The position numbers were made by a program, and so were the translations under genes. DNA of 51,223 bases from a virus (Duplodnaviria > Caudoviricetes). The notes below the pieces were generated by a model. The model did no database searches, was not told where the DNA came from, and was given only the letters and a program-made list of their open reading frames with translations. This document shows, piece by piece, positions 1,301 to 44,763 of the stretch (its first letter is position 1; the number at the start of each line of letters is the position of its first letter). The DNA is taken from the IMG/VR virus record IMGVR_UViG_3300044768_000011, positions 1-51,223 of that record; one strand, 5' to 3'.

Positions 1301-1921
1301 TTATTCCATTTCGAGTTCATAGGTGATGCCTTTCCGGTTCTTCGGGAAGTCATCTGTTCCGGTAACGGAGGTGGTGACGGTTTGGTCGCTGTTGATGGTT
1401 TCGATGATCCCATCGGCTGTGGCGATCACGGTGTCGCCTCTGAGCGCAACGATTTTGATGGACACGTATTCGATATCTTCGGTGGCGAGGTTTTTCACGC
1501 GGAGGTCAACGTCCATCCACCCGAACACGTTACGGATCGGCTTGAATGATTTGACCTGGAGGAATTCGGCGTAGTCACCGGACACGGTGACCCCTTTAGG
1601 GGCCTTCGGGATGAGGGCTTCAGCGTCGGCTACCGCGTCGGCGTAGGCGTCTGCGGCGGCTTTCTCTGCGGCCTTCGCGTCCTGGGTGGGCGCCGGGTTC
1701 TGGGTGGCGGTGGAGGCCGGGGCGCCGTATGTGCCGTTGACGACAGGTGGAGTCGGTCCGGCCGGTTCGAGCAGTGCTGACACGGTGACCAGGACAACGA
1801 GTGCGCAGAAGATCCAGACGATGACATGGAGGGCCTTGCGGCGTGGCTTACGGGGCGGTGCTGGAGGGGTCGGGTCGGCGAAGGTGACGTAGGGGGTGTT
1901 CTTCTCGAACATGCTGGACAT
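1301..1921 (-). CDS. single-pass membrane protein with extracellular Ig-like (FxLYD-like) domain
   Basis: start moved to MSSMFEK because the longer ORF overlaps a tRNA-like element; TM helix VIVWIFCALVVLVTVSALL, Pro/Ala linker, beta-rich C-terminus. Confidence 0.7.
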   Translation of the reverse strand: MSSMFEKNTPYVTFADPTPPAPPRKPRRKALHVIVWIFCALVVLVTVSALLEPAGPTPPVVNGTYGAPASTATQNPAPTQDAKAAEKAAADAYADAVADAEALIPKAPKGVTVSGDYAEFLQVKSFKPIRNVFGWMDVDLRVKNLATEDIEYVSIKIVALRGDTVIATADGIIETINSDQTVTTSVTGTDDFPKNRKGITYELEME

Positions 1922-1960
1922 GATGTCTCCCTGGGTTCCTGGTGGTCGTGCTGGTTGTCG

Positions 1961-2036
1961 TGCTGGGAGCGGGACTCGAACCCGCACCTTCATCCGCGTC
2001 TCGGCGGTGACGCTCTGCCTGTTGAGCTACCCCTGC
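1961..2036 (-). ncRNA. tRNA-like element 1 (non-canonical anticodon arm)
   Basis: GCAGGGG-TA-GCTC AACAGGCA GAGC-G-[TCACCGCCGAGACGCGGATGA]-AGGT-GCGGG TTCGAGT CCCGC-TCCCAGC-A; D and T arms canonical, anticodon arm 21 nt with no U33 loop. Confidence 0.8.
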
Positions 2037-2040
2037 TTGG

Positions 2041-2074
2041 TGCCGGAACGGGGTGTCACGCCCCCGTTCCGGCA
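2041..2074. terminator. 13-bp hairpin between gene 2117 and tRNA-like element 1
   Basis: tgccggaacgggg ... ccccgttccggca. Confidence 0.55.
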
Positions 2075-2116
2075 GGTTCGATTGTGCTGGTTACTGCCCG
2101 GTTCTCAGAGTTCGGG

Positions 2117-2374
2117 TTAGGTCGACTTGAGAGCCTGGTTGAGTCCATCCCAGGTCGCTTGGGCGTACTCACGGGTTTCGCCGGCCGGGTGCATGTACCC
2201 GAACGCGAACGCGAGTGCCAGTCGGCGTCGTTCGGGTGAGCCGACGGGTGCGACATCCGCCGCAACTATCTCGATGAGCGCGTCGCGGGCCTGGTCGGCG
2301 TGCTTCTGTAGGTTGGTTCGGTAGTACGGCGCGAGCATTACCCGAAGATCATCAGCGGTTTCGATCTTCCTCAT
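2117..2374 (-). CDS. hypothetical protein lying between the two tRNA-like elements
   Basis: start MRKIETADD with GGAGG RBS upstream. Confidence 0.7.
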   Translation of the reverse strand: MRKIETADDLRVMLAPYYRTNLQKHADQARDALIEIVAADVAPVGSPERRRLALAFAFGYMHPAGETREYAQATWDGLNQALKST

Positions 2375-2418
2375 GATCAGTATTCCTCCATGGTGTCTCC
2401 TAGAAGTCGAGCGGGGAG

Positions 2419-2544
2419 TGGCCCTGGGAGGACTCGAACCTCCATACCGCCCATTCGTCGATCCGGGCGCGCTCCGGATCCTGCCCATTTACCCGTGGCC
2501 ACGGGTAACCAGGCTGGGTGCTCATCCTGTTGAGCTACAGGGCT
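2419..2544 (-). ncRNA. tRNA-like element 2 (126 nt; anticodon region replaced by two hairpins)
   Basis: AGCCCTG/CAGGGCC acceptor, GCTC AACAGGAT GAGC D arm, GGAGG TTCGAGT CCTCC T arm; insert has TTACCCGT-GGCC-ACGGGTAA and GATCCGG...CCGGATC stems. Confidence 0.8.
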
Positions 2545-2571
2545 ATCGGACTAGGTGAAGTTCCTCTCTAT

Positions 2572-2820
2572 CGCAGGGTGGTGGCCTCAGGCGACTCTTG
2601 CGAGGGGTCGCCTGAGGCGTTGATCCCCAGCTGGGTGGTGCCAGCCAGTAGCGGTCGGGTGATGCGTTACCACGGTCCCTCACCCGAGAGGGCCGCGTAT
2701 ATCCCGCTACCAGCTGTCGCCCTGACATCCCGCCATGGTCGGGATGCCAGCACTTGCCCACCTCGTATGCCTACGGGTTGGGCCCTGCGTGCCCCGGTGA
2801 CCGGCGAAAGTCACCGAGGC
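2572..2820 (-). ncRNA. putative large structured non-coding RNA, family unknown
   Basis: nested 7-11 bp stems; G-U pairs and a GCAA tetraloop work on the minus strand; no credible ORF. Confidence 0.65.
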
Positions 2821-2850
2821 TGAAAACTGTTGCTACGACTTGCCGGTTTT
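2821..2850. repeat. 30-bp direct repeat, copy 1
   Basis: tgaaaactgttgctacgacttgccggtttt; 27/30 identical to 3150-3179. Confidence 0.85.
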
Positions 2851-3125
2851 CAGGCAGGGGGTTTTTCGTCGGTCACCTCACTGACGTGCACGAGATGCCC
2901 GTAGTTGCCGATCTTCCCGTAGAGCACTTCGTTGTCGAAGGGCAGACGGGATGATGCATGGCGCATGGCGTATTGCAGGGCGGCGGGGTTCGAGGTTTGC
3001 GAGTCTTCCCAGCTTCGGCCGGTCACTCGATCCCAGTAGTCCTCGACTCGGTAGGGGTAGGTTTCGCCTTCTATGGTGACGGTTACGGTGTGTAGTGCCA
3101 GCGGGTGATGGTCGTTGTGGATCAT
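2850..3125 (-). CDS. hypothetical phage protein flanked by the 30-bp repeats
   Basis: AAGGA RBS; globular-looking 91 aa (EDYWDRV.G.SW...NPAAL.YA.R...VLYGKIG..GHLVH.SE). Confidence 0.8.
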   Translation of the reverse strand: MIHNDHHPLALHTVTVTIEGETYPYRVEDYWDRVTGRSWEDSQTSNPAALQYAMRHASSRLPFDNEVLYGKIGNYGHLVHVSEVTDEKPPA

Positions 3126-3149
3126 GGTGTGTCCTTTTCTTCGGGGGGT

Positions 3150-3179
3150 TGAAAACTGTTGGTACGACGTGCCGATTTT
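3150..3179. repeat. 30-bp direct repeat, copy 2
   Basis: tgaaaactgttggtacgacgtgccgatttt. Confidence 0.85.
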
Positions 3180-3552
3180 AGATCCTCGCTAGCTCTTCGA
3201 TCGGTGTCCCGGCGGCCAGCAGTGTTCCGCGTCCAGCGAGGAACTCCAGCACGGACTCGGGGATGTCGGCGATCGTGTCACGCCGCTGCACGCCGTTCGC
3301 TGACCGGTAGGCGTCCGAACGCCACGTGTGGTCACCTCGCTGGGTCGCGTGGGCGTTGCCGAGTACGGTGAGCGCCGGCCCGTAGCCGCGGACGATGTAG
3401 ATCGTTCCCGCGTGAGTGTTCTCGATCAGGGTTTCGGTGACCTCTGCGACCCGGAACGGCCGCTGGTTCGGGCGCTTGATCACGATCATCACATCCGCGG
3501 GGATCTTCACGGTCCGGACCGTTTCCCTGGTCGCGGTGATTGGGTCGCTCAT
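3178..3552 (-). CDS. hypothetical protein
   Basis: ATGA overlap with the upstream gene. Confidence 0.7.
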   Translation of the reverse strand: MSDPITATRETVRTVKIPADVMIVIKRPNQRPFRVAEVTETLIENTHAGTIYIVRGYGPALTVLGNAHATQRGDHTWRSDAYRSANGVQRRDTIADIPESVLEFLAGRGTLLAAGTPIEELARI

Positions 3553-3779
3553 GATCGGTGGTCCCTTCGGGGTGTCCAGCCCATGGCGTACAGGTCGGTG
3601 TAGTCGATCGATTGGGGTTGCTCGGGTGCGGTGGCCCCCGGGATGCCTCGCTGGTCGTGCCAGGCCCGCGGATGGGTCAGGTATTCGGGGTCGGTGATCC
3701 GGGCGCCGGGGCCGCGGATCAGGGTCACCGTGAACAGGCCGGCGGAGAAGGTGTTGAGTGTGCGCCAGAAACCGGCCAT
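3549..3779 (-). CDS. hypothetical protein
   Basis: TGATG and ATGA coupling on both sides. Confidence 0.6.
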   Translation of the reverse strand: MAGFWRTLNTFSAGLFTVTLIRGPGARITDPEYLTHPRAWHDQRGIPGATAPEQPQSIDYTDLYAMGWTPRRDHRS

Positions 3780-4424: not shown

Positions 4425-4456
4425 CAGAAACCCCCCGCCGCAGCGGGGGGTTTCTG
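4425..4456. terminator. bidirectional intrinsic terminator
   Basis: cagaaaccccccgc-cgca-gcggggggtttctg between convergent genes. Confidence 0.85.
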
Positions 4457-13228: not shown

Positions 13229-13671
13229 CAGTACCCTCCCCTGTCGCAGTCTCCGCGGAGTTCACCGTGGACACAGAAACCGTGCGTACGGTCATGGTGG
13301 TTGGAGGCCGTGCTCGTAAGGTGATCGTGGGCCCTGTCGGCGACCTTCTCGATGTGCTGGAGAAGGTGCTCAATGGCCAGGCCGGTGTCGTGGTTCAGGT
13401 GCTCGTACGCGCCGAGCGCGGTAAGCGCGACGTCGAGTAGTTCTTTCTGGACGTCGCTGATGGAGTGGGTGACTCCCTTGCGTGGGTTCTGGCCGGTCGC
13501 GCCGATGTACGCGGCGACCACTTCCCCACCTTCCTCCATGATTTTCGCTATCCGTGCCCAGGCAATGACTTCCGGGTCTCGGCCGGCGAAAGCTGAGTCG
13601 ATCCACTGGCTCAGGAAAACCAGGTGCACTGACGCGCGGTAAATTTCAGGGTTCTTCGGGGGGTTCGTCAT
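13228..13671 (-). CDS. MazG-like nucleotide pyrophosphohydrolase
   Basis: KIMEEGGEV...GQNPRKG...ELLDV motif. Confidence 0.85.
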   Translation of the reverse strand: MTNPPKNPEIYRASVHLVFLSQWIDSAFAGRDPEVIAWARIAKIMEEGGEVVAAYIGATGQNPRKGVTHSISDVQKELLDVALTALGAYEHLNHDTGLAIEHLLQHIEKVADRAHDHLTSTASNHHDRTHGFCVHGELRGDCDRGGY

Positions 13672-14063
13672 CGAAAGTCCACATCCTCATTGGCTTCGAC
13701 TGCTGCACGCAGTCCGGTGATGAATCGCTCGGTTGTTCCACGCATCCCCAGTCGAGAGATGTGACCTCGCGCGTCGCTCTCGTTGACCTTCGGTAGGAGT
13801 TCTTCGAGCCGGTCGGCCAGCGGTCCGGCCTGCGCTGGATGGATCACCCCGTCGCAGTCGGAGTGCACAATCAGGAAGATCAGCGGGTCGGCGGGAATCC
13901 GGTTCCATTCCCCTGCGTAGTTCGCCGATACGTAGTCATCCCAGTCGATCTGGACGCCGCGGTCTACGACGGCGTATCCGGCGGCCTCGGCGACGTGGTC
14001 GCGCCACCGGTTGAACGCGCCATAGGCGCCGTGCCAGCAGTCGTGTGTTGTGTCTAGTCCCAT
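13668..14063 (-). CDS. conserved hypothetical phage protein
   Basis: MGLD...Y..F..WR...HSDCDG.I pattern. Confidence 0.8.
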   Translation of the reverse strand: MGLDTTHDCWHGAYGAFNRWRDHVAEAAGYAVVDRGVQIDWDDYVSANYAGEWNRIPADPLIFLIVHSDCDGVIHPAQAGPLADRLEELLPKVNESDARGHISRLGMRGTTERFITGLRAAVEANEDVDFR

Positions 14064-16661: not shown

Positions 16662-16930
16662 AAAAACGGCCCCATTCCCGCTGTCGCCGGGTCGACCCGG
16701 GCGGAGCAGTCGATCCGGCGACCGACCCGGGTGAGCTCTGGTACCGGTGCTCCGTCGCCGAGGCACACCATGGCCAGGACGGGGCAGTTACCGCCCGGAC
16801 CGAACTCGCCGATGTCTGTGGCTGTTCCGGCGTTGATACAGCCGAGTACACAATTTGTGGCCTCGACGATCGGTATCAGGTCGCTGGCGTGCTCGGCGCC
16901 GAAGTCACCACGGCGGGGGACGTAGCTCAT
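16658..16930 (-). CDS. Cys-rich hypothetical protein
   Basis: coupled on both sides. Confidence 0.6.
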   Translation of the reverse strand: MSYVPRRGDFGAEHASDLIPIVEATNCVLGCINAGTATDIGEFGPGGNCPVLAMVCLGDGAPVPELTRVGRRIDCSARVDPATAGMGPFL

Positions 16931-17373
16931 GCCGGCGGCTCCTCGGTTGGTTGGAACAGGGTTGGGACGTGCACGAATTTCGTTATCTGTTGCTCGGTCA
17001 GTACTGGTTCTGTGACGGCGGCGATCTGGGTGATGAGCCGGTCGAGGACGCGGAGCTCACCTTCTTGCCGGTACCAGTCGGCGGTACCGATGAGGTGGTC
17101 TGCGCCGGAGCGGTCGGCGCGGAGTTGCTGAAGCATCACCGCGATCTCGATGGGTGACCGGAACCTCCCTCGCTGCTCCGCGAGAAGAACCACGTTCGCG
17201 CGGGACTTCGCCCCGGTCTTCTGAAAGATCCGCGAGAGGTGGGTTTTGATGGTCAAGGGGGAGAGGTGCAGTCGCTCACCGATTTCGGAGTTGGTCAGTC
17301 CCTCCCCAACCAGGGCCACGATTTGACGTTCCCGACTGGTCAACTCTTGACCAATGATCATGATGTCGACCAT
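16927..17373 (-). CDS. LuxR-type HTH regulator
   Basis: LTSRERQIVALVGEGLTNSEIGERLHLSPLTIKTHLSRIFQK. Confidence 0.85.
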   Translation of the reverse strand: MVDIMIIGQELTSRERQIVALVGEGLTNSEIGERLHLSPLTIKTHLSRIFQKTGAKSRANVVLLAEQRGRFRSPIEIAVMLQQLRADRSGADHLIGTADWYRQEGELRVLDRLITQIAAVTEPVLTEQQITKFVHVPTLFQPTEEPPA

Positions 17374-22702: not shown

Positions 22703-24064
22703 TTAGGTCGCTCTTTGCAGGGCCGCGTACTCGCTCGCGGGAAGGTCCCATGCCCATGCCTGTGCCTCCACCGCGGTACAGATCGACGCCGGGACTGTCT
22801 CTCCGTACCGGCGGACCGATCCGTCCCGGTCGGGGCTGGCGTTGACCATCAGCACGACCCGCACCCGTTCCCCGTAGATCTCGGCGGGGATGTCATACAG
22901 GCGCAGCTCGTTCGGGGCGTTCGCCGGGTCGGGCGCGGTGTCCACCAACTGGAGTCTCGCGTCAATAACGAAACGGTCCCAGCCCATCCGCTCGATCGCG
23001 CACCGCCGGATCTCCGTGTTCTCTTCCCGCATGATCCGGTTGGTGTCCCACCCGGTTTCGATCAGGTCGGCGGGGACGCGGACTCCGTGCCAGGAGTACA
23101 CGGCCCACCCGTCGGGCCAGACCATCGCTGGACCGTCGGGGTTGTGGAGGTTCCCTTCGGGGTCACGGTGCAGGGTCAGTGACCGGGGTGTCAGGACCGC
23201 GAAATCGCGGAAACACCACCAGAATCCCCCCCCCGCCTGGGCTATCTCCTGCTGCCCATGGATCGGCTCTAGTCCAGTGACACCGAGTTGTTCCATGGCG
23301 TCGAGATAGGAGTACCAGCCAGCGAGGTATTGGCCCCAGATGCGCCCGTTCCACCAGTTATTGATCCGGTCCTTGTATACCTGGGCGCCCACCTGGGCGC
23401 GCACCTGGGCGCGCACCTGGTCGCGCACCTGGGCGTCCACCTGGTCGTCCACCTGGGCGCCCACCTGGTCGTCCACCTGGGCGCGCACCTGGGCGCGCAC
23501 CTGGGCGCCCACCTGGGCGTCCACCTGGGCGTCCACCTGGTCGTACACCTGGTCGTACACCTGGGCGTCCACCTGGGCGCGCACCTGGTCGTACACCTGG
23601 GCGCGCACCTGGCCGTACACCTGGTCGTACACCTGGGCGTCCACCTGGGCGCGCACCTGGTCGCGCACCTGGTCGTACACCTGGGCGCCCACCTGGTCGT
23701 ACACCTGGTCGCGCACCTGGTCGTACACCTGGTCGCGCACCTGGCCGTACACCTGGTCGTACACCTGGGCGTCCACCTGGGCGCCCACCTGGGCGTCCAC
23801 CTGCGGTAGGCGGGCCAATGCTGCCGCAACAATCTCCGGAGCAACCGCCTGACCCAGGACCCCCGCCCCTGGCGAGTCCAGCCACATGATGAACGTGGGG
23901 GGCTGGAGGCCACCAGCCTTGTAGGCGGCGCGGACACCGTGCTCGGCTTTCACGCGGTCGGCGGGCCCGGTCGACAGGCCAATGCCTAACCATGTGTCGC
24001 GAGTGGTCGGGAGAACGGTTTCTTGCGCGACCGCGAGCTTGGTGATCGTGATCTTGCGTTTCAT
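22703..24064 (-). CDS. DUF6745-like protein with a central tetrapeptide repeat tract
   Basis: start MKRKIT (AAGGA RBS); LHNPDGPAM.WPDGW..YSWHGV, I..E.N.EIRR..IE.MG, VNASP..DG..RRY. Confidence 0.85.
   Translation of the reverse strand: MKRKITITKLAVAQETVLPTTRDTWLGIGLSTGPADRVKAEHGVRAAYKAGGLQPPTFIMWLDSPGAGVLGQAVAPEIVAAALARLPQVDAQVGAQVDAQVYDQVYGQVRDQVYDQVRDQVYDQVGAQVYDQVRDQVRAQVDAQVYDQVYGQVRAQVYDQVRAQVDAQVYDQVYDQVDAQVDAQVGAQVRAQVRAQVDDQVGAQVDDQVDAQVRDQVRAQVRAQVGAQVYKDRINNWWNGRIWGQYLAGWYSYLDAMEQLGVTGLEPIHGQQEIAQAGGGFWWCFRDFAVLTPRSLTLHRDPEGNLHNPDGPAMVWPDGWAVYSWHGVRVPADLIETGWDTNRIMREENTEIRRCAIERMGWDRFVIDARLQLVDTAPDPANAPNELRLYDIPAEIYGERVRVVLMVNASPDRDGSVRRYGETVPASICTAVEAQAWAWDLPASEYAALQRAT
23375..23803 (-). 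repeat. 35 tandem 12-bp repeats (Q-V-x-x)
   Basis: CAG GTG [GAC/GGC/TAC/CGC] [GCC/GAC/GGC]. Confidence 0.95.
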
Positions 24065-31156: not shown

Positions 31157-34101
31157 CAGCCAGCCCTTCCCAGTAGATCAGCCTGCCGGCCCTGCACACG
31201 CCCAAGAACCTGACCATCCAACACGACCCTCAGGTCACCGCGCCCGAGGGCCCTGATCAGGGTGTCACTGATCTGCTGAGCGGTGACACCGGTTGGGGTG
31301 GAGGCGGGTGCCCCCGTCAACGAGCGGCGATCCAAGACCCGCGTCAGCCGATCGAACGACCTGGTCTGCATAGGCGACAGCATCCGTTCCGGGTACCCCG
31401 AACGGTTGATCGCAGCCTCACCAGAACGGATCAGCCCGCCCCGGTCCGCCAGGAACATCTTCCGCACCCGGTCCCCGAGGTAGTCCTGCCCCGCCGGGTC
31501 GAGAAGATCATACGGGCCGTCCCCAACGACGGGTCCGCCCTTCGCGTACCCACGGAGGTGGTACAGGCCGGTGAACATCGACGACCGCGCGCCGCGCGCG
31601 GACCGCCCGACCCGGGGACCGGTTGACCCCGCCGATTCCACGTTGACACCGTTGATCGTCCCAGCCATGTGCCCCGGGTTCCCGCGGCGCGAACCAATCA
31701 TGAAACTGCCCGGTCCGGACACGAAACCAGCCGAGGGGAACGACCCGGTAGCGAATCGGCGCGAGTACGGCGAACGGCCTTGCACCACATTCAGCAGGGC
31801 ACTCATGAACCCGCTGCAGTCGTAGCCGCGCGGACCTACCCCACCCCAGATGTACGGTTTCCCCACCTGCGCGCGAGCGAAGTTCAGGGCACCGTTCAGG
31901 GACGGGTTGAACCCGATAGCCGCTGAAGCGATCTTCGCGATCCGGTCCGCCAGCCTGGACGACGTGCCCGAGGCGAGCTCACCCTCACCGCGCGCGAACG
32001 CCCGGGCCGAGAACACCGGCCCACCTGCAGCGAACCCGGGGCCGCGCACCGATCGGCGCATCGCCAGGACCGCGGCGTGCCCTCCGGCGGCGACGACTTC
32101 CCTCGCCGTCCACACGTGCTCACCGTGGGACAGGCGAGCCGAAATACTGTCCGACGTTCCGGTGCCGGCGCCGCGGACCGGGCCCCCTGTGGCGCCGGTG
32201 AACGTCACCCCGCCGCGTCCGCCGCCACCGATCCGTACCCCGTACAAGGTCCGCGGGATGTTGTTCTTCAATGCGAGGCTGATGGTGGAGGTGACCCGCT
32301 TAGGGATACCGAGCACTTCCCGGGCGTAGTCTTGCGCGGCCTTTTTCGACAACCCGAACCGGCGTCCCATCCGTACCAGCTCTTCGCGGCCTGCCTCGGT
32401 GATCGCCGTCTGGCGTTTCTGGGAAGCGCCGGCCGCGGTGGCCGCGTCGCGCCATTCCAGGGTCGAGGACGCCACCCGATCCAGGGCGGCCCGGTTGGTT
32501 CGGCCCTTCGCGGTGTGAACGTCGAGGGTTTTACCGTTGTCCTTCAACGCCTGTGTTGCGTCATCGATCGATGCTTCATAGTCGTTCTGGGATCCACGGT
32601 TCCGTAGCAGGGCGCGCGCGTTCTTCAGCAGAGCTTCGCGGTCTTCCTCCAGTGCACGCTTGTGTTTCTGGGTTGCCGCGGTGGCCGCGTCAACAGGTGG
32701 TTTCGACGCGGCCACCGCGGCGGTGTACTGAGGGAACATCTTCCGCAGGCTGGCCACCGGCAGACCGGCTTTCACGGCAGCGTCCTCGTACAGTTTGATC
32801 TGCTTCGCGGCGCCGTCGATGTTCCCGCCGGTGACCATTGCAGCGAACGCCGTGTCGAGTTTTCTGGTGCGATCCTCGAAGCTCTTCTGCCCCTTTCCCA
32901 TATCGTCCCAGCGGGCGATACGGGCGCTCCACCCCTTGTCGAGGGCATCATGCGCGGAGACACCGAACTTCTGTAACGCCTCGGCCGTCGTATCAACCTT
33001 GTTCCCGAACAGTTGCGCCTTGTTAGAGAACAACTCGATTTCCGCGCCGGACAGTTTCCCTTGGCCGGAAACATCTTTCATTCCCTGCGCAAGCTTGGAT
33101 ACTTCCACGTTCGCCATCGACCATTGGCGGAGCTTCTCATCCGCCCATACCGCGGCGACCGCAACGCCGAACACGCTCATGGATGCCGCTGCCAACCGCG
33201 CGGCGGAGGCAATCTGGATCATTCCCTGGATCGACGTCGCCCACGTCGCCGCAGCCATCGCGGCAGTCCACGCGGACTGTGCCGCGGCCACCGCGACCAG
33301 CGCCTTACGAACCGTCCACACCGCGACCCCGAACCCGACCACCGCGATCGTCGCGGGCTGCAGGACGTCCATGTTCTGCTCGATCACAGCAAGGAAGGCG
33401 AGCCCGCCCTCCGACGCTTTGATCAGCGCGGGGAGGAGTTTCTCACCGACGGTTTCCTGTAGCTCACCGAACTGGTTCGACAGGATCGCGGCTTGGCCGG
33501 CCGCTGTTTTCCCCTCCGCCTCCGCGAATCCCCCTACCTGGGTGCGCAGTCCTCCCATGATCTGCTCGAAGTTCCCGGCGGTCGACCCGGTGTCCTTGAA
33601 GTTGATCCCGATGCCCTTGAGGGCTTTCCCGTTGCCCATCATCGCTTTACCGAGGACGGTCGCGGCGGCGGGGAGGTCCTTCCCGGTCTTCGCGGCGTAG
33701 TCCTGCATCAGCGGTGTCAGCTGGGTGATCTGGGTACCGGTGAGCTTGAAATTCGCGAGGACCGCCTGCCCGGACGACGTCGCGTCATCGTCGAACTTGA
33801 CCTTCTTCGCGAGCTCACCGTTGAGTTCCTGCAACGCGGCCTGGTTGGTGTCGGCCAAGGCGGGGAATTTCTCGAACGCCTGCTGCAGCTTCAGCGACGA
33901 CTGTTCGGCTTCGACGTACGCCTTGACCGAGTCCGACCCGAATTTGAAGATCGCCGCAGCGGCAATCGCCGCGCCGGCCGCGGTGGCCGCGCTGAACCGC
34001 TCGGCGCGCTGGCGAGCCCGATCGGTTTCGTCACCAACCTCCCCCAGCCCCCGGCGGACACCGTGATCACGGAACAGCAGATCGAAGACCAGGGACGCCA
34101 T
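31156..34101 (-). CDS. tape measure protein with NlpC/P60 domain
   Basis: long Ala-rich helical protein; GPV.G.GTGTSDSI.ARLS.GE motif; GKPYIWGG...YDCSG...GH. Confidence 0.92.
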   Translation of the reverse strand: MASLVFDLLFRDHGVRRGLGEVGDETDRARQRAERFSAATAAGAAIAAAAIFKFGSDSVKAYVEAEQSSLKLQQAFEKFPALADTNQAALQELNGELAKKVKFDDDATSSGQAVLANFKLTGTQITQLTPLMQDYAAKTGKDLPAAATVLGKAMMGNGKALKGIGINFKDTGSTAGNFEQIMGGLRTQVGGFAEAEGKTAAGQAAILSNQFGELQETVGEKLLPALIKASEGGLAFLAVIEQNMDVLQPATIAVVGFGVAVWTVRKALVAVAAAQSAWTAAMAAATWATSIQGMIQIASAARLAAASMSVFGVAVAAVWADEKLRQWSMANVEVSKLAQGMKDVSGQGKLSGAEIELFSNKAQLFGNKVDTTAEALQKFGVSAHDALDKGWSARIARWDDMGKGQKSFEDRTRKLDTAFAAMVTGGNIDGAAKQIKLYEDAAVKAGLPVASLRKMFPQYTAAVAASKPPVDAATAATQKHKRALEEDREALLKNARALLRNRGSQNDYEASIDDATQALKDNGKTLDVHTAKGRTNRAALDRVASSTLEWRDAATAAGASQKRQTAITEAGREELVRMGRRFGLSKKAAQDYAREVLGIPKRVTSTISLALKNNIPRTLYGVRIGGGGRGGVTFTGATGGPVRGAGTGTSDSISARLSHGEHVWTAREVVAAGGHAAVLAMRRSVRGPGFAAGGPVFSARAFARGEGELASGTSSRLADRIAKIASAAIGFNPSLNGALNFARAQVGKPYIWGGVGPRGYDCSGFMSALLNVVQGRSPYSRRFATGSFPSAGFVSGPGSFMIGSRRGNPGHMAGTINGVNVESAGSTGPRVGRSARGARSSMFTGLYHLRGYAKGGPVVGDGPYDLLDPAGQDYLGDRVRKMFLADRGGLIRSGEAAINRSGYPERMLSPMQTRSFDRLTRVLDRRSLTGAPASTPTGVTAQQISDTLIRALGRGDLRVVLDGQVLGRVQGRQADLLGRAG

Positions 34102-44680: not shown

Positions 44681-44716
44681 GGCTAAGTCCTAACTGAAAT
44701 CCTCATCGGTGACAGC

Positions 44717-44751
44717 CTGCGCAGGTGACGACGTAATCGCCACCTGCGCAG
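44717..44751 (-). terminator. hairpin after the major capsid gene
   Basis: ctgcgcaggtg/cacctgcgcag stem. Confidence 0.6.
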
Positions 44752-44763
44752 AGAAAAATGCGC

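Follow-up and report, generated by a model that had tools for sequence, protein, structure and literature searches.

A strongly folded non-coding region beside a tRNA look-alike in an actinophage-like genome, likely to be a structured phage RNA

We analysed a 51,223-base stretch of tailed-phage DNA, referred to here as the window, which is the complete IMG/VR virus record IMGVR_UViG_3300044768_000011 (linear, ~88% complete), and within it the minus strand of positions 2572–2820. This 249-nt region is exceptionally structured, its non-coding character is well supported, and it is likely, though unproven, that it constitutes one functional structured RNA. Our favoured interpretation, held tentatively and at a little less than an even chance, is that the region gives rise to a stable phage RNA, with RNase P likely cleaving on its 3′ side at an adjoining transfer RNA (tRNA) look-alike. 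A preliminary description of the same DNA had proposed a structured RNA of about 250 nt; its view of the region as non-coding, strongly folded and read from the gene strand was upheld, while the RNA families it offered for comparison gave no Rfam match. The case is built on thermodynamics, strand bias and two population variants, because the phage is uncultured and no relative carries the RNA.

On the minus strand, 2572–2820 folds at −144.5 kcal/mol, compared with −108.5 ± 5.3 kcal/mol for dinucleotide shuffles (z −6.79), and none of 200 shuffles was as good. Structure beyond chance, as first proposed, is thus confirmed. The core without its first hairpin (2572–2789, same strand) gave a z of −6.05, and two 249-nt pieces of flanking coding sequence, folded as controls, gave −0.02 and −0.08. 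In a GC-corrected scan of the genome in segments of 250 nt, the region ranked first of 409, with a residual of −34.7 kcal/mol versus −29.1 kcal/mol for the runner-up. The latter contains an 80-nt imperfect palindrome (23382–23535) within a 498-amino-acid (aa) gene; a 19-bp near-perfect hairpin was also seen at 32675–32721, within a 981-aa tape-measure-like gene. The predicted fold of 2572–2820 is sharply defined: 194 of the 249 positions have one pairing state at a probability above 0.9, and mean pair probability is at least 0.98 for the helices designated P0, P1, P3, P4 and P6 below. Folding the entire 475-nt gap between genes, which extends over 2375–2849 from the stop codon of the gene at 2850–3125 to the start (2374) of an 85-aa gene, reproduces the same fold.

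Two open reading frames (ORFs) overlap the region, one at 2543–2761 on the minus strand (72 aa) and the other at 2518–2823 on the plus strand (101 aa). GC content is flat over the codon positions of both (0.62–0.67); in the neighbouring genes, GC at third positions is 0.73–0.91 and GC at second positions is lower. Neither ORF matches a Pfam or PHROG family, neither has a homologue among 5.8 billion proteins, and neither is recorded as a called protein. The GTG start at 2761 is directly abutted by GAGG, a poor spacing for ribosome binding. The earlier statement that no convincing ORF covers the region, for which 2543–2761 was the critical case, therefore agrees with the flat codon-position GC and the absence of family and homologue matches. 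The strand on which the RNA would be read was addressed through its base pairs. The 82 predicted pairs include seven G·U and no A·C mismatches occur inside helices, the sole 1×1 mismatch being G·G; on the plus strand, the mirror image of this structure is less stable by 16.7 kcal/mol. These figures agree with the suggestion that G·U pairs favour the strand used by the genes, and they favour a reading from the minus strand, although the argument is only moderately strong because the helices were defined on that strand.

In the predicted minus-strand fold, a 12-bp hairpin, P0, is followed by a domain that is closed by a 6-bp helix and holds four larger hairpins and one 3-bp stem, with inter-helix linkers of 1–7 nt. 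P0 (2791–2820) contains two G·U pairs and a 6-nt loop, lies outside the closed domain and has a mean pair probability of 0.99; it had been described as 11 bp with one G·U. The core domain (2572–2789) is delimited by P1, which encloses P2–P6. P1 was found where a helix between 2783–2789 and 2572–2578 had been proposed, with 6 bp (2784–2789/2572–2577) and a seventh pair that is merely possible. P2 occupies 2756–2783 in the minimum-energy fold. P3 extends over 2719–2753, and its core, 2722–2750, has the 11 bp and single G·U originally reported. P4 is a 13-bp helix with two G·U pairs (2704–2716/2642–2654) that carries an inner hairpin at 2671–2697; the stem proposed at 2704–2710/2648–2654 is real and forms only part of it, and the stem proposed at 2710–2716/2628–2634 is a competing pairing which the minimum-energy fold does not use. 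P5 is the 3-bp stem, at 2626–2635. P6 (2584–2618) has the predicted GCAA cap, on 12 bp plus a 2-bp tip rather than on 11 bp plus a 3-bp stem, and its loop sequence is CCCCUCGCAAGA. C-rich unpaired stretches in the domain comprise CACCACCC, present twice, and a CCCCUC loop. P0 and P6 are alike, as if variants of one hairpin. The idea that they are paralogous repeated hairpins was discarded, as the word is not enriched elsewhere (30 matches versus 38.9 expected).

An additional stem between 2680–2687 and 2655–2662 had been proposed, along with a pseudoknot or switch involving the loop of the inner hairpin. A perfect 8-bp pairing of these segments, joining the inner-hairpin loop to the 3′ internal loop of P4, does exist, but it is unused in the minimum-energy fold and has a probability of 0.002 in the nested ensemble. 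Forcing it gave −141.0 instead of −144.5 kcal/mol, a cost of 3.5 kcal/mol; since pseudoknot energies lie outside the folding calculation, the pairing was judged by the nested ensemble and the forced fold. It clashes with the inner hairpin in only 2 nt, and an H-type pseudoknot or a switch through these 8 bp is possible in the model. At the other end of the structure, a 32-nt imperfect inverted repeat (78%; 2796–2827/2846–2877) joins the 3′ end of the gene at 2850–3125 to P0. The words GGUGACC/GGUCACC occur three times across 2796–2877, offering an alternative to P0 whose upstream partner is absent in one population variant (X4, below).

Downstream of the domain, after a 27-nt spacer (2545–2571), lies the tRNA look-alike at 2419–2544 on the minus strand, so that a tRNA-like element stands directly 3′ of the structured RNA. 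The preliminary description does not mention this element, which is the most informative of the neighbours. It scores 35.0 bits against the Rfam tRNA model, for which the gathering score is 29, in a local search; the match was missed by the gathering run over the whole window, which uses faster filters. The element has an acceptor stem of six Watson-Crick pairs plus A1·C72, a D arm, and a canonical T arm with the loop region GGUUCGAGUCC, and its minimum-energy fold is a cloverleaf (z −2.66). The arms of a cloverleaf are thus in place; the 5-bp anticodon stem, 7-nt loop, U33 and anticodon of a canonical tRNA are not. A 63-nt insert replaces the anticodon loop and forms two hairpins in a three-way junction, with the loops GGCC and AGCGCGC, neither of which supplies a U33. 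ARAGORN does not call the element, and it cannot decode. A second odd tRNA is found nearby at 1960–2036 (minus strand). ARAGORN calls it Ser(CGA), although at 77 nt it is without a long variable arm; its acceptor has an A·A mismatch and its fold a 7-bp anticodon stem with a 6-nt loop, and it may, judging from this fold, not be a working serine tRNA. With these two neighbours, the structured region belongs to a small island rich in RNA genes. Other tRNA look-alikes with long anticodon arms were noted in high-GC IMG/VR phage contigs, at 1495–1609 of L095 and 1495–1607 of L096. They score 43.4 and 48.6 bits with the Rfam tRNA model and carry ~40-nt inserts in the anticodon arm, and the L095 element is one of several clustered tRNAs. 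Across the three elements, the inserts cannot be aligned with each other, and a covariance model of the 250-nt domain found no match beside the L095 or L096 elements.

These features suggest a route by which the RNA could be made. As all genes run in the same direction and the space ahead of the next gene is too short for a promoter of its own, 2572–2820 would be transcribed with its neighbours in a longer transcript, and a location inside such a transcript is also most likely given that the 85-aa gene starts only ~45 nt past the tRNA look-alike. The acceptor, D and T arms are the parts of a tRNA that RNase P recognises, and the look-alike, which keeps these arms, would act as a processing handle in the way that tRNAs do in polycistronic transcripts. 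Cleavage at 2544/2545 would release the upstream RNA as the P1-closed domain with a 27-nt tail formed by the spacer. We infer this release by analogy, from tRNA-containing operons and from the MALAT1-mascRNA arrangement. The released RNA, ~250–280 nt in length, could act in trans, and attachment to a protein or an RNA, of host or phage, is the most plausible mode; we speculate that both copies of unpaired CACCACCC and the CCCCUC loop might be the contact sites.

Known RNA families were sought with Rfam 15, so that the exclusions given here hold at the sensitivity of a single-sequence scan. Over the whole window, cmscan with 4,227 families at gathering thresholds found only two tRNAs, and nothing in 2572–2820. 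When both strands of 2200–3000 were scanned at E values up to 10, only the tRNA model and a sub-threshold mascRNA match appeared, both on 2419–2544. The possible raiA, Ms1, ribozyme or phage-motif identity raised in the preliminary description consequently found no match, and the scan likewise excludes 6S, ROOL, GOLLD, HEARO, transfer-messenger RNA (tmRNA), RNase P RNA and the known riboswitches and ribozymes. Within the reach of Rfam, the RNA family is undescribed. A tmRNA is also spoken against by the lack of an ARAGORN call and by the layout, as the two acceptor strands of the tRNA-like element are found together, both on the downstream side of the domain, unlike in tmRNA. Nothing supports a ribozyme or self-cleavage, or a riboswitch or other ligand sensing.

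By context, GOLLD and ROOL are the closest described RNAs. In the portions of Weinberg et al. (2017, PMC5737381) on which we draw, GOLLD is often near tRNAs and in prophages and ROOL shares both properties, ROOL has a mean size of 581 nt, and conserved multistem junctions and pseudoknots define both RNAs. As far as that account goes, the region resembles them in being a non-coding RNA with a complex arrangement of many helices, encoded by a phage beside tRNA-type genes. It differs in being ~250 nt, less than half their size, in matching neither Rfam model at E up to 10, and in having no relatives that we could find. A second parallel is offered by the MALAT1-mascRNA and MEN-beta-menRNA transcripts (RF01684), in which an RNase P cut at a tRNA-like element makes the 3′ end of a long non-coding RNA. 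Here, too, a tRNA look-alike that cannot decode but retains its acceptor and T arms comes directly after a structured non-coding RNA, and this layout suggests 3′-end formation by RNase P. The mascRNA system is vertebrate and nuclear and no homology is implied: the RF01684 model gave 14.9 bits against a gathering score of 42.5, and the look-alike, unlike mascRNA, keeps a D arm and carries its 63-nt insert. Phages T5 and T4 produce stable RNAs that exemplify non-decoding tRNA-shaped phage RNAs, and 2419–2544 is similar in keeping the tRNA upper body while a structured insert replaces the anticodon loop. The actinobacterial 6C small RNA has C-rich loops that pair with G-rich mRNA sites; the P6 loop, the two C-rich unpaired stretches and the actinophage-like character of the phage recall it, but the architecture here is much larger and no Rfam family, 6C included, matched at E up to 10. 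Many tRNA-like candidates are reported in the consulted part of an IMG/VR survey of candidate structured RNAs (PMC10690425).

Among the sequencing runs that contain the stretch, no RNA run is listed, and four DNA runs contain all or part of it, one of them perhaps being its source. Three further runs from different studies (X2, X3 and X4) hold near-identical pieces. The X3 contig, over 2622–2830, has three differences, one of which, 2725 A>G, turns the only G·U pair of P3 (G74·U96) into G-C. In X2, one extra nucleotide at 2496 falls within the loop of the first of the two hairpins in the tRNA-like insert. Both changes fit the fold and are weak evidence for it. The change 2725 A>G is one-sided (G·U to G-C) and is the sole helix variant seen, and the searches below gave no homologue spanning the domain.

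The upstream edge of the RNA appears to be a variable site. A 33-nt element at 2818–2850 (minus strand) lies directly upstream of P0, and a second copy, 88% identical, is found at 3147–3179 ahead of the 91-aa gene at 2850–3125 (phrog_18626), which is thus bracketed by 33-nt direct repeats. The element has two copies in the genome, a number reached by none of 100 shuffles, and it is conserved in L008, the nearest relative (76% identity in the best protein segment). In the X4 contig, 2850 is joined directly to ~3180, so that a 329-bp unit consisting of the 91-aa gene and one copy of the repeat is absent from this variant; the upstream edge of the RNA is therefore a cassette boundary. In L008 the gene breaks off after ~18 codons, where it is joined to the 3′ arm of P0. 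It looks as if the 91-aa gene is a small cassette that is gained or lost by recombination between the repeats, and the 33-nt element marks a recombination-prone boundary. A role of the element as promoter or operator is unproven; as a general promoter it was rejected, with only two genomic copies and no convincing shared −10 or −35 hexamers. An integration site (attP) was rejected as well, since PHROG scans of 74 ORFs revealed no integrase.

Searches for relatives of the domain were made from several starting points. Blastn of 2300–3100 and 2415–2825 against 50,697 phage records returned nothing for the domain, only tRNA parts of the neighbour being matched, and exact-peptide scans of IMG/VR viral contigs with the 91-aa, 377-aa and terminase proteins revealed no close relative. 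The 377-aa protein, encoded nearby, has 24 homologues, including contigs labelled as a Propionibacteriaceae metagenome-assembled genome (MAG) and proteins 60–63% identical to it on contigs as long as 20 kb (P0004–P0007), and a profile built on it fetched 79 metagenome loci and 12 viral loci. A single-sequence covariance model of the RNA (R1) scores 307 bits on the window. Elsewhere its best score was 17.3 bits, on short hairpin-like pieces, in scans of 83 sources (890,472 bases), of 11 sources with filters off and of 12 sources. It matched none of 151 sampled Actinomycetota genomes and nothing in genome G001; this is a sample and not evidence of absence. The region read as a pseudo-protein (the plus-strand ORF) had a single hit in GTDB genomes, L007. 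This hit is within coding sequence of an Acidimicrobiales MAG, has only a 12-nt word in common with the query and no Rfam match, and was attributed to chance. The pattern GGTCACCRGGGCACGCA, which is common to the window and L008, occurred in eight stretches of viral contigs, all of them chance hits as judged by blastn and tblastx. L008 retains the 33-nt element and, of the 91-aa gene, about 18 codons from its start, then passes into the 3′ arm of P0 (the only part of this hairpin retained) and on into GCACGCA; its contig ends ~10 nt into the domain. As the start of the domain is kept despite the rearranged upstream gene, a homologous element probably exists there.

A number of observations weigh against a single RNA released by RNase P. 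Transcription, RNase P cleavage and action in trans are all inferred. As no homologue covering the domain was found, there is no covariation evidence, and selection could have acted on individual helices or on the DNA. The closing helix P1 has just 6 bp and, by a rough estimate, could arise by chance in GC-rich sequence. The plus strand also folds well (−134.3 kcal/mol, z −4.74). Of the three differences in X3, only 2725 A>G was displayed. The four bases at the end of the L008 contig do not match the 5′ strand of P1; as the other strand of this helix would lie beyond the contig, and sequence at contig ends is unreliable, the mismatch is neither for nor against P1. Strong hairpins are, moreover, common in this genome: the minus strand has 26 of at least 10 bp uninterrupted, nine of them intergenic, and three of the 26 fall inside 2584–2820. 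Examples located right after genes are 4425–4456, 556–588, 44716–44752 and 2041–2074, the last a 13-bp hairpin past the 85-aa gene. In L097, whose 377-aa protein homologue is 53% identical, a 320-nt hairpin-rich non-coding gap between convergent genes (13531–13850) has at least five strong hairpins ~2.7 kb downstream of that homologue and does not match the R1 model. One loop in the L097 gap is ACCACCCCUCGGG, reminiscent of the C-rich stretches in the window. Together, the 26 hairpins and the L097 gap raise the prospect that clusters of hairpins where operons end may be a general trait of phages like this one.

The last point leads to a serious rival, a stabiliser or processing hairpin set at a transcript end. 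Here 2572–2820 would consist of hairpins independent of one another, clustered in the untranslated 3′ portion of the upstream transcript and serving in pausing, termination or protection from exonucleases and in processing, with no joint fold and no function in trans. That P0 begins 30 nt past the stop codon of the gene at 2850–3125, that P0 and P6 look like variants of one hairpin, that P1 is short and that L097 has its hairpin-rich gap at an operon end would all be expected of such a cluster. It fits less well with the rest of the local sequence. The only terminator-like site in 1800–3600 is on the plus strand, at 2839–2858, and no minus-strand hairpin here is followed by a U-tract (P0, P3 and P6 are followed by ACGCAGG, GGGCGAC and CACCACC); since genes continue on the same strand, full termination at this point would silence them. 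The tight packing of four larger hairpins and a 3-bp stem, and the 13-bp long-range P4 with its nested hairpin, exceed what a stabiliser usually needs. We regard this explanation as possible, if on the unlikely side. A feature of the DNA itself, such as palindromic sites for protein binding or recombination, or scars of insertions and deletions at a gene-cassette boundary, would accord with the strong folding of both strands and with the recombination-prone upstream boundary, where the gene bracketed by repeats is absent in X4 and truncated in L008. The seven G·U pairs, the lack of A·C within helices and the 16.7 kcal/mol penalty on the other strand speak against it, no integrase was present in the 74 ORFs scanned, and the replication initiator and the predicted cos end are ~9 kb and ~2.5 kb away; we consider such a feature improbable.

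Regulation in cis is very improbable. A riboswitch-like leader or attenuator for the tRNA look-alike or the 85-aa gene could use the 8-bp alternative as its switch, and a fold with this perfect helix is just 3.5 kcal/mol less stable than the minimum-energy one; another competing pairing, of CAGCUGG words, and the inverted repeat joining the end of the upstream gene to P0 could contribute. Against this, no Rfam riboswitch or leader matched at E up to 10, no terminator or helix sequestering a ribosome-binding site is evident, the 126-nt tRNA-like element separates the domain from the next start codon, and the upstream partner of the P0 alternative is missing in X4. A small protein gene, either 2543–2761 or 2518–2823, has in its favour that both frames are open, and we give it almost no weight. 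Apart from the composition, database and start-site results above, tblastn with the plus-strand ORF as a pseudo-protein gave a single chance hit across three collections, with nothing in IMG/VR viral or JGI metagenome contigs, and all other genes are on the minus strand. Based on these comparisons, the RNase P-released phage RNA is the interpretation that we retain as the favoured one.

The remainder of the genome is that of a tailed phage, with a GC content of 61–71% and all convincing genes on the minus strand. Family scans place terminase, portal, protease, capsid, tail and lysis genes first, followed by RecE/RecT, a sigma-like protein, two DNA methylases, RusA, a replication initiator, and DnaB-like and SNF2-like helicases. 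Small ORFs and an HNH endonuclease (114–419) make up the contig end near the structured region, and the terminase genes are at the opposite end. The sigma-factor-like protein (16927–17373, minus strand; phrog_3282, E 4e-12) implies that some phage promoters may differ from the consensus promoters of the host. The phage is actinophage-like: relatives of the 91-aa gene come from phages of Streptomyces, Gordonia and Rhodococcus (53 records, none reaching 60% identity). It is also an orphan, with a highest capsid identity to any isolated phage of 44%. The 85-aa gene (P0001; 2117–2374, minus strand) has its own GGAGGA ribosome-binding site; its function is unassigned, with no lead from Pfam, PHROG, phage tblastn or Atlas. 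A four-codon mini-ORF, MEEY (2375–2392, minus strand), with its own GGAG site, stops 2 nt before the ATG of this gene.

Structured phage RNAs beside tRNA genes, such as GOLLD and ROOL, are a long-standing puzzle. A bolder form of the favoured reading, which we judge clearly unlikely, is that the region is the founding member of a new class of phage RNA: compact (~220–250 nt), released by RNase P at a non-decoding tRNA handle, and situated in an RNA-only island with a second aberrant tRNA. In this version it would serve in trans as a sponge or decoy whose target is a host factor, for example a defence nuclease, an enzyme that handles tRNAs or a protein associated with ribosomes, and it would be the small equivalent, in an actinophage, of ROOL and GOLLD. 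The value of the finding is limited for now, with an uncultured phage and no relative that carries the RNA, and would rise sharply with covariation or with a discrete RNA. If the reading is true, here would be a far smaller case, joined to a tRNA-like processing handle, on which biochemical work would be easier and which could tie RNAs of this kind to host systems that process or target tRNAs.

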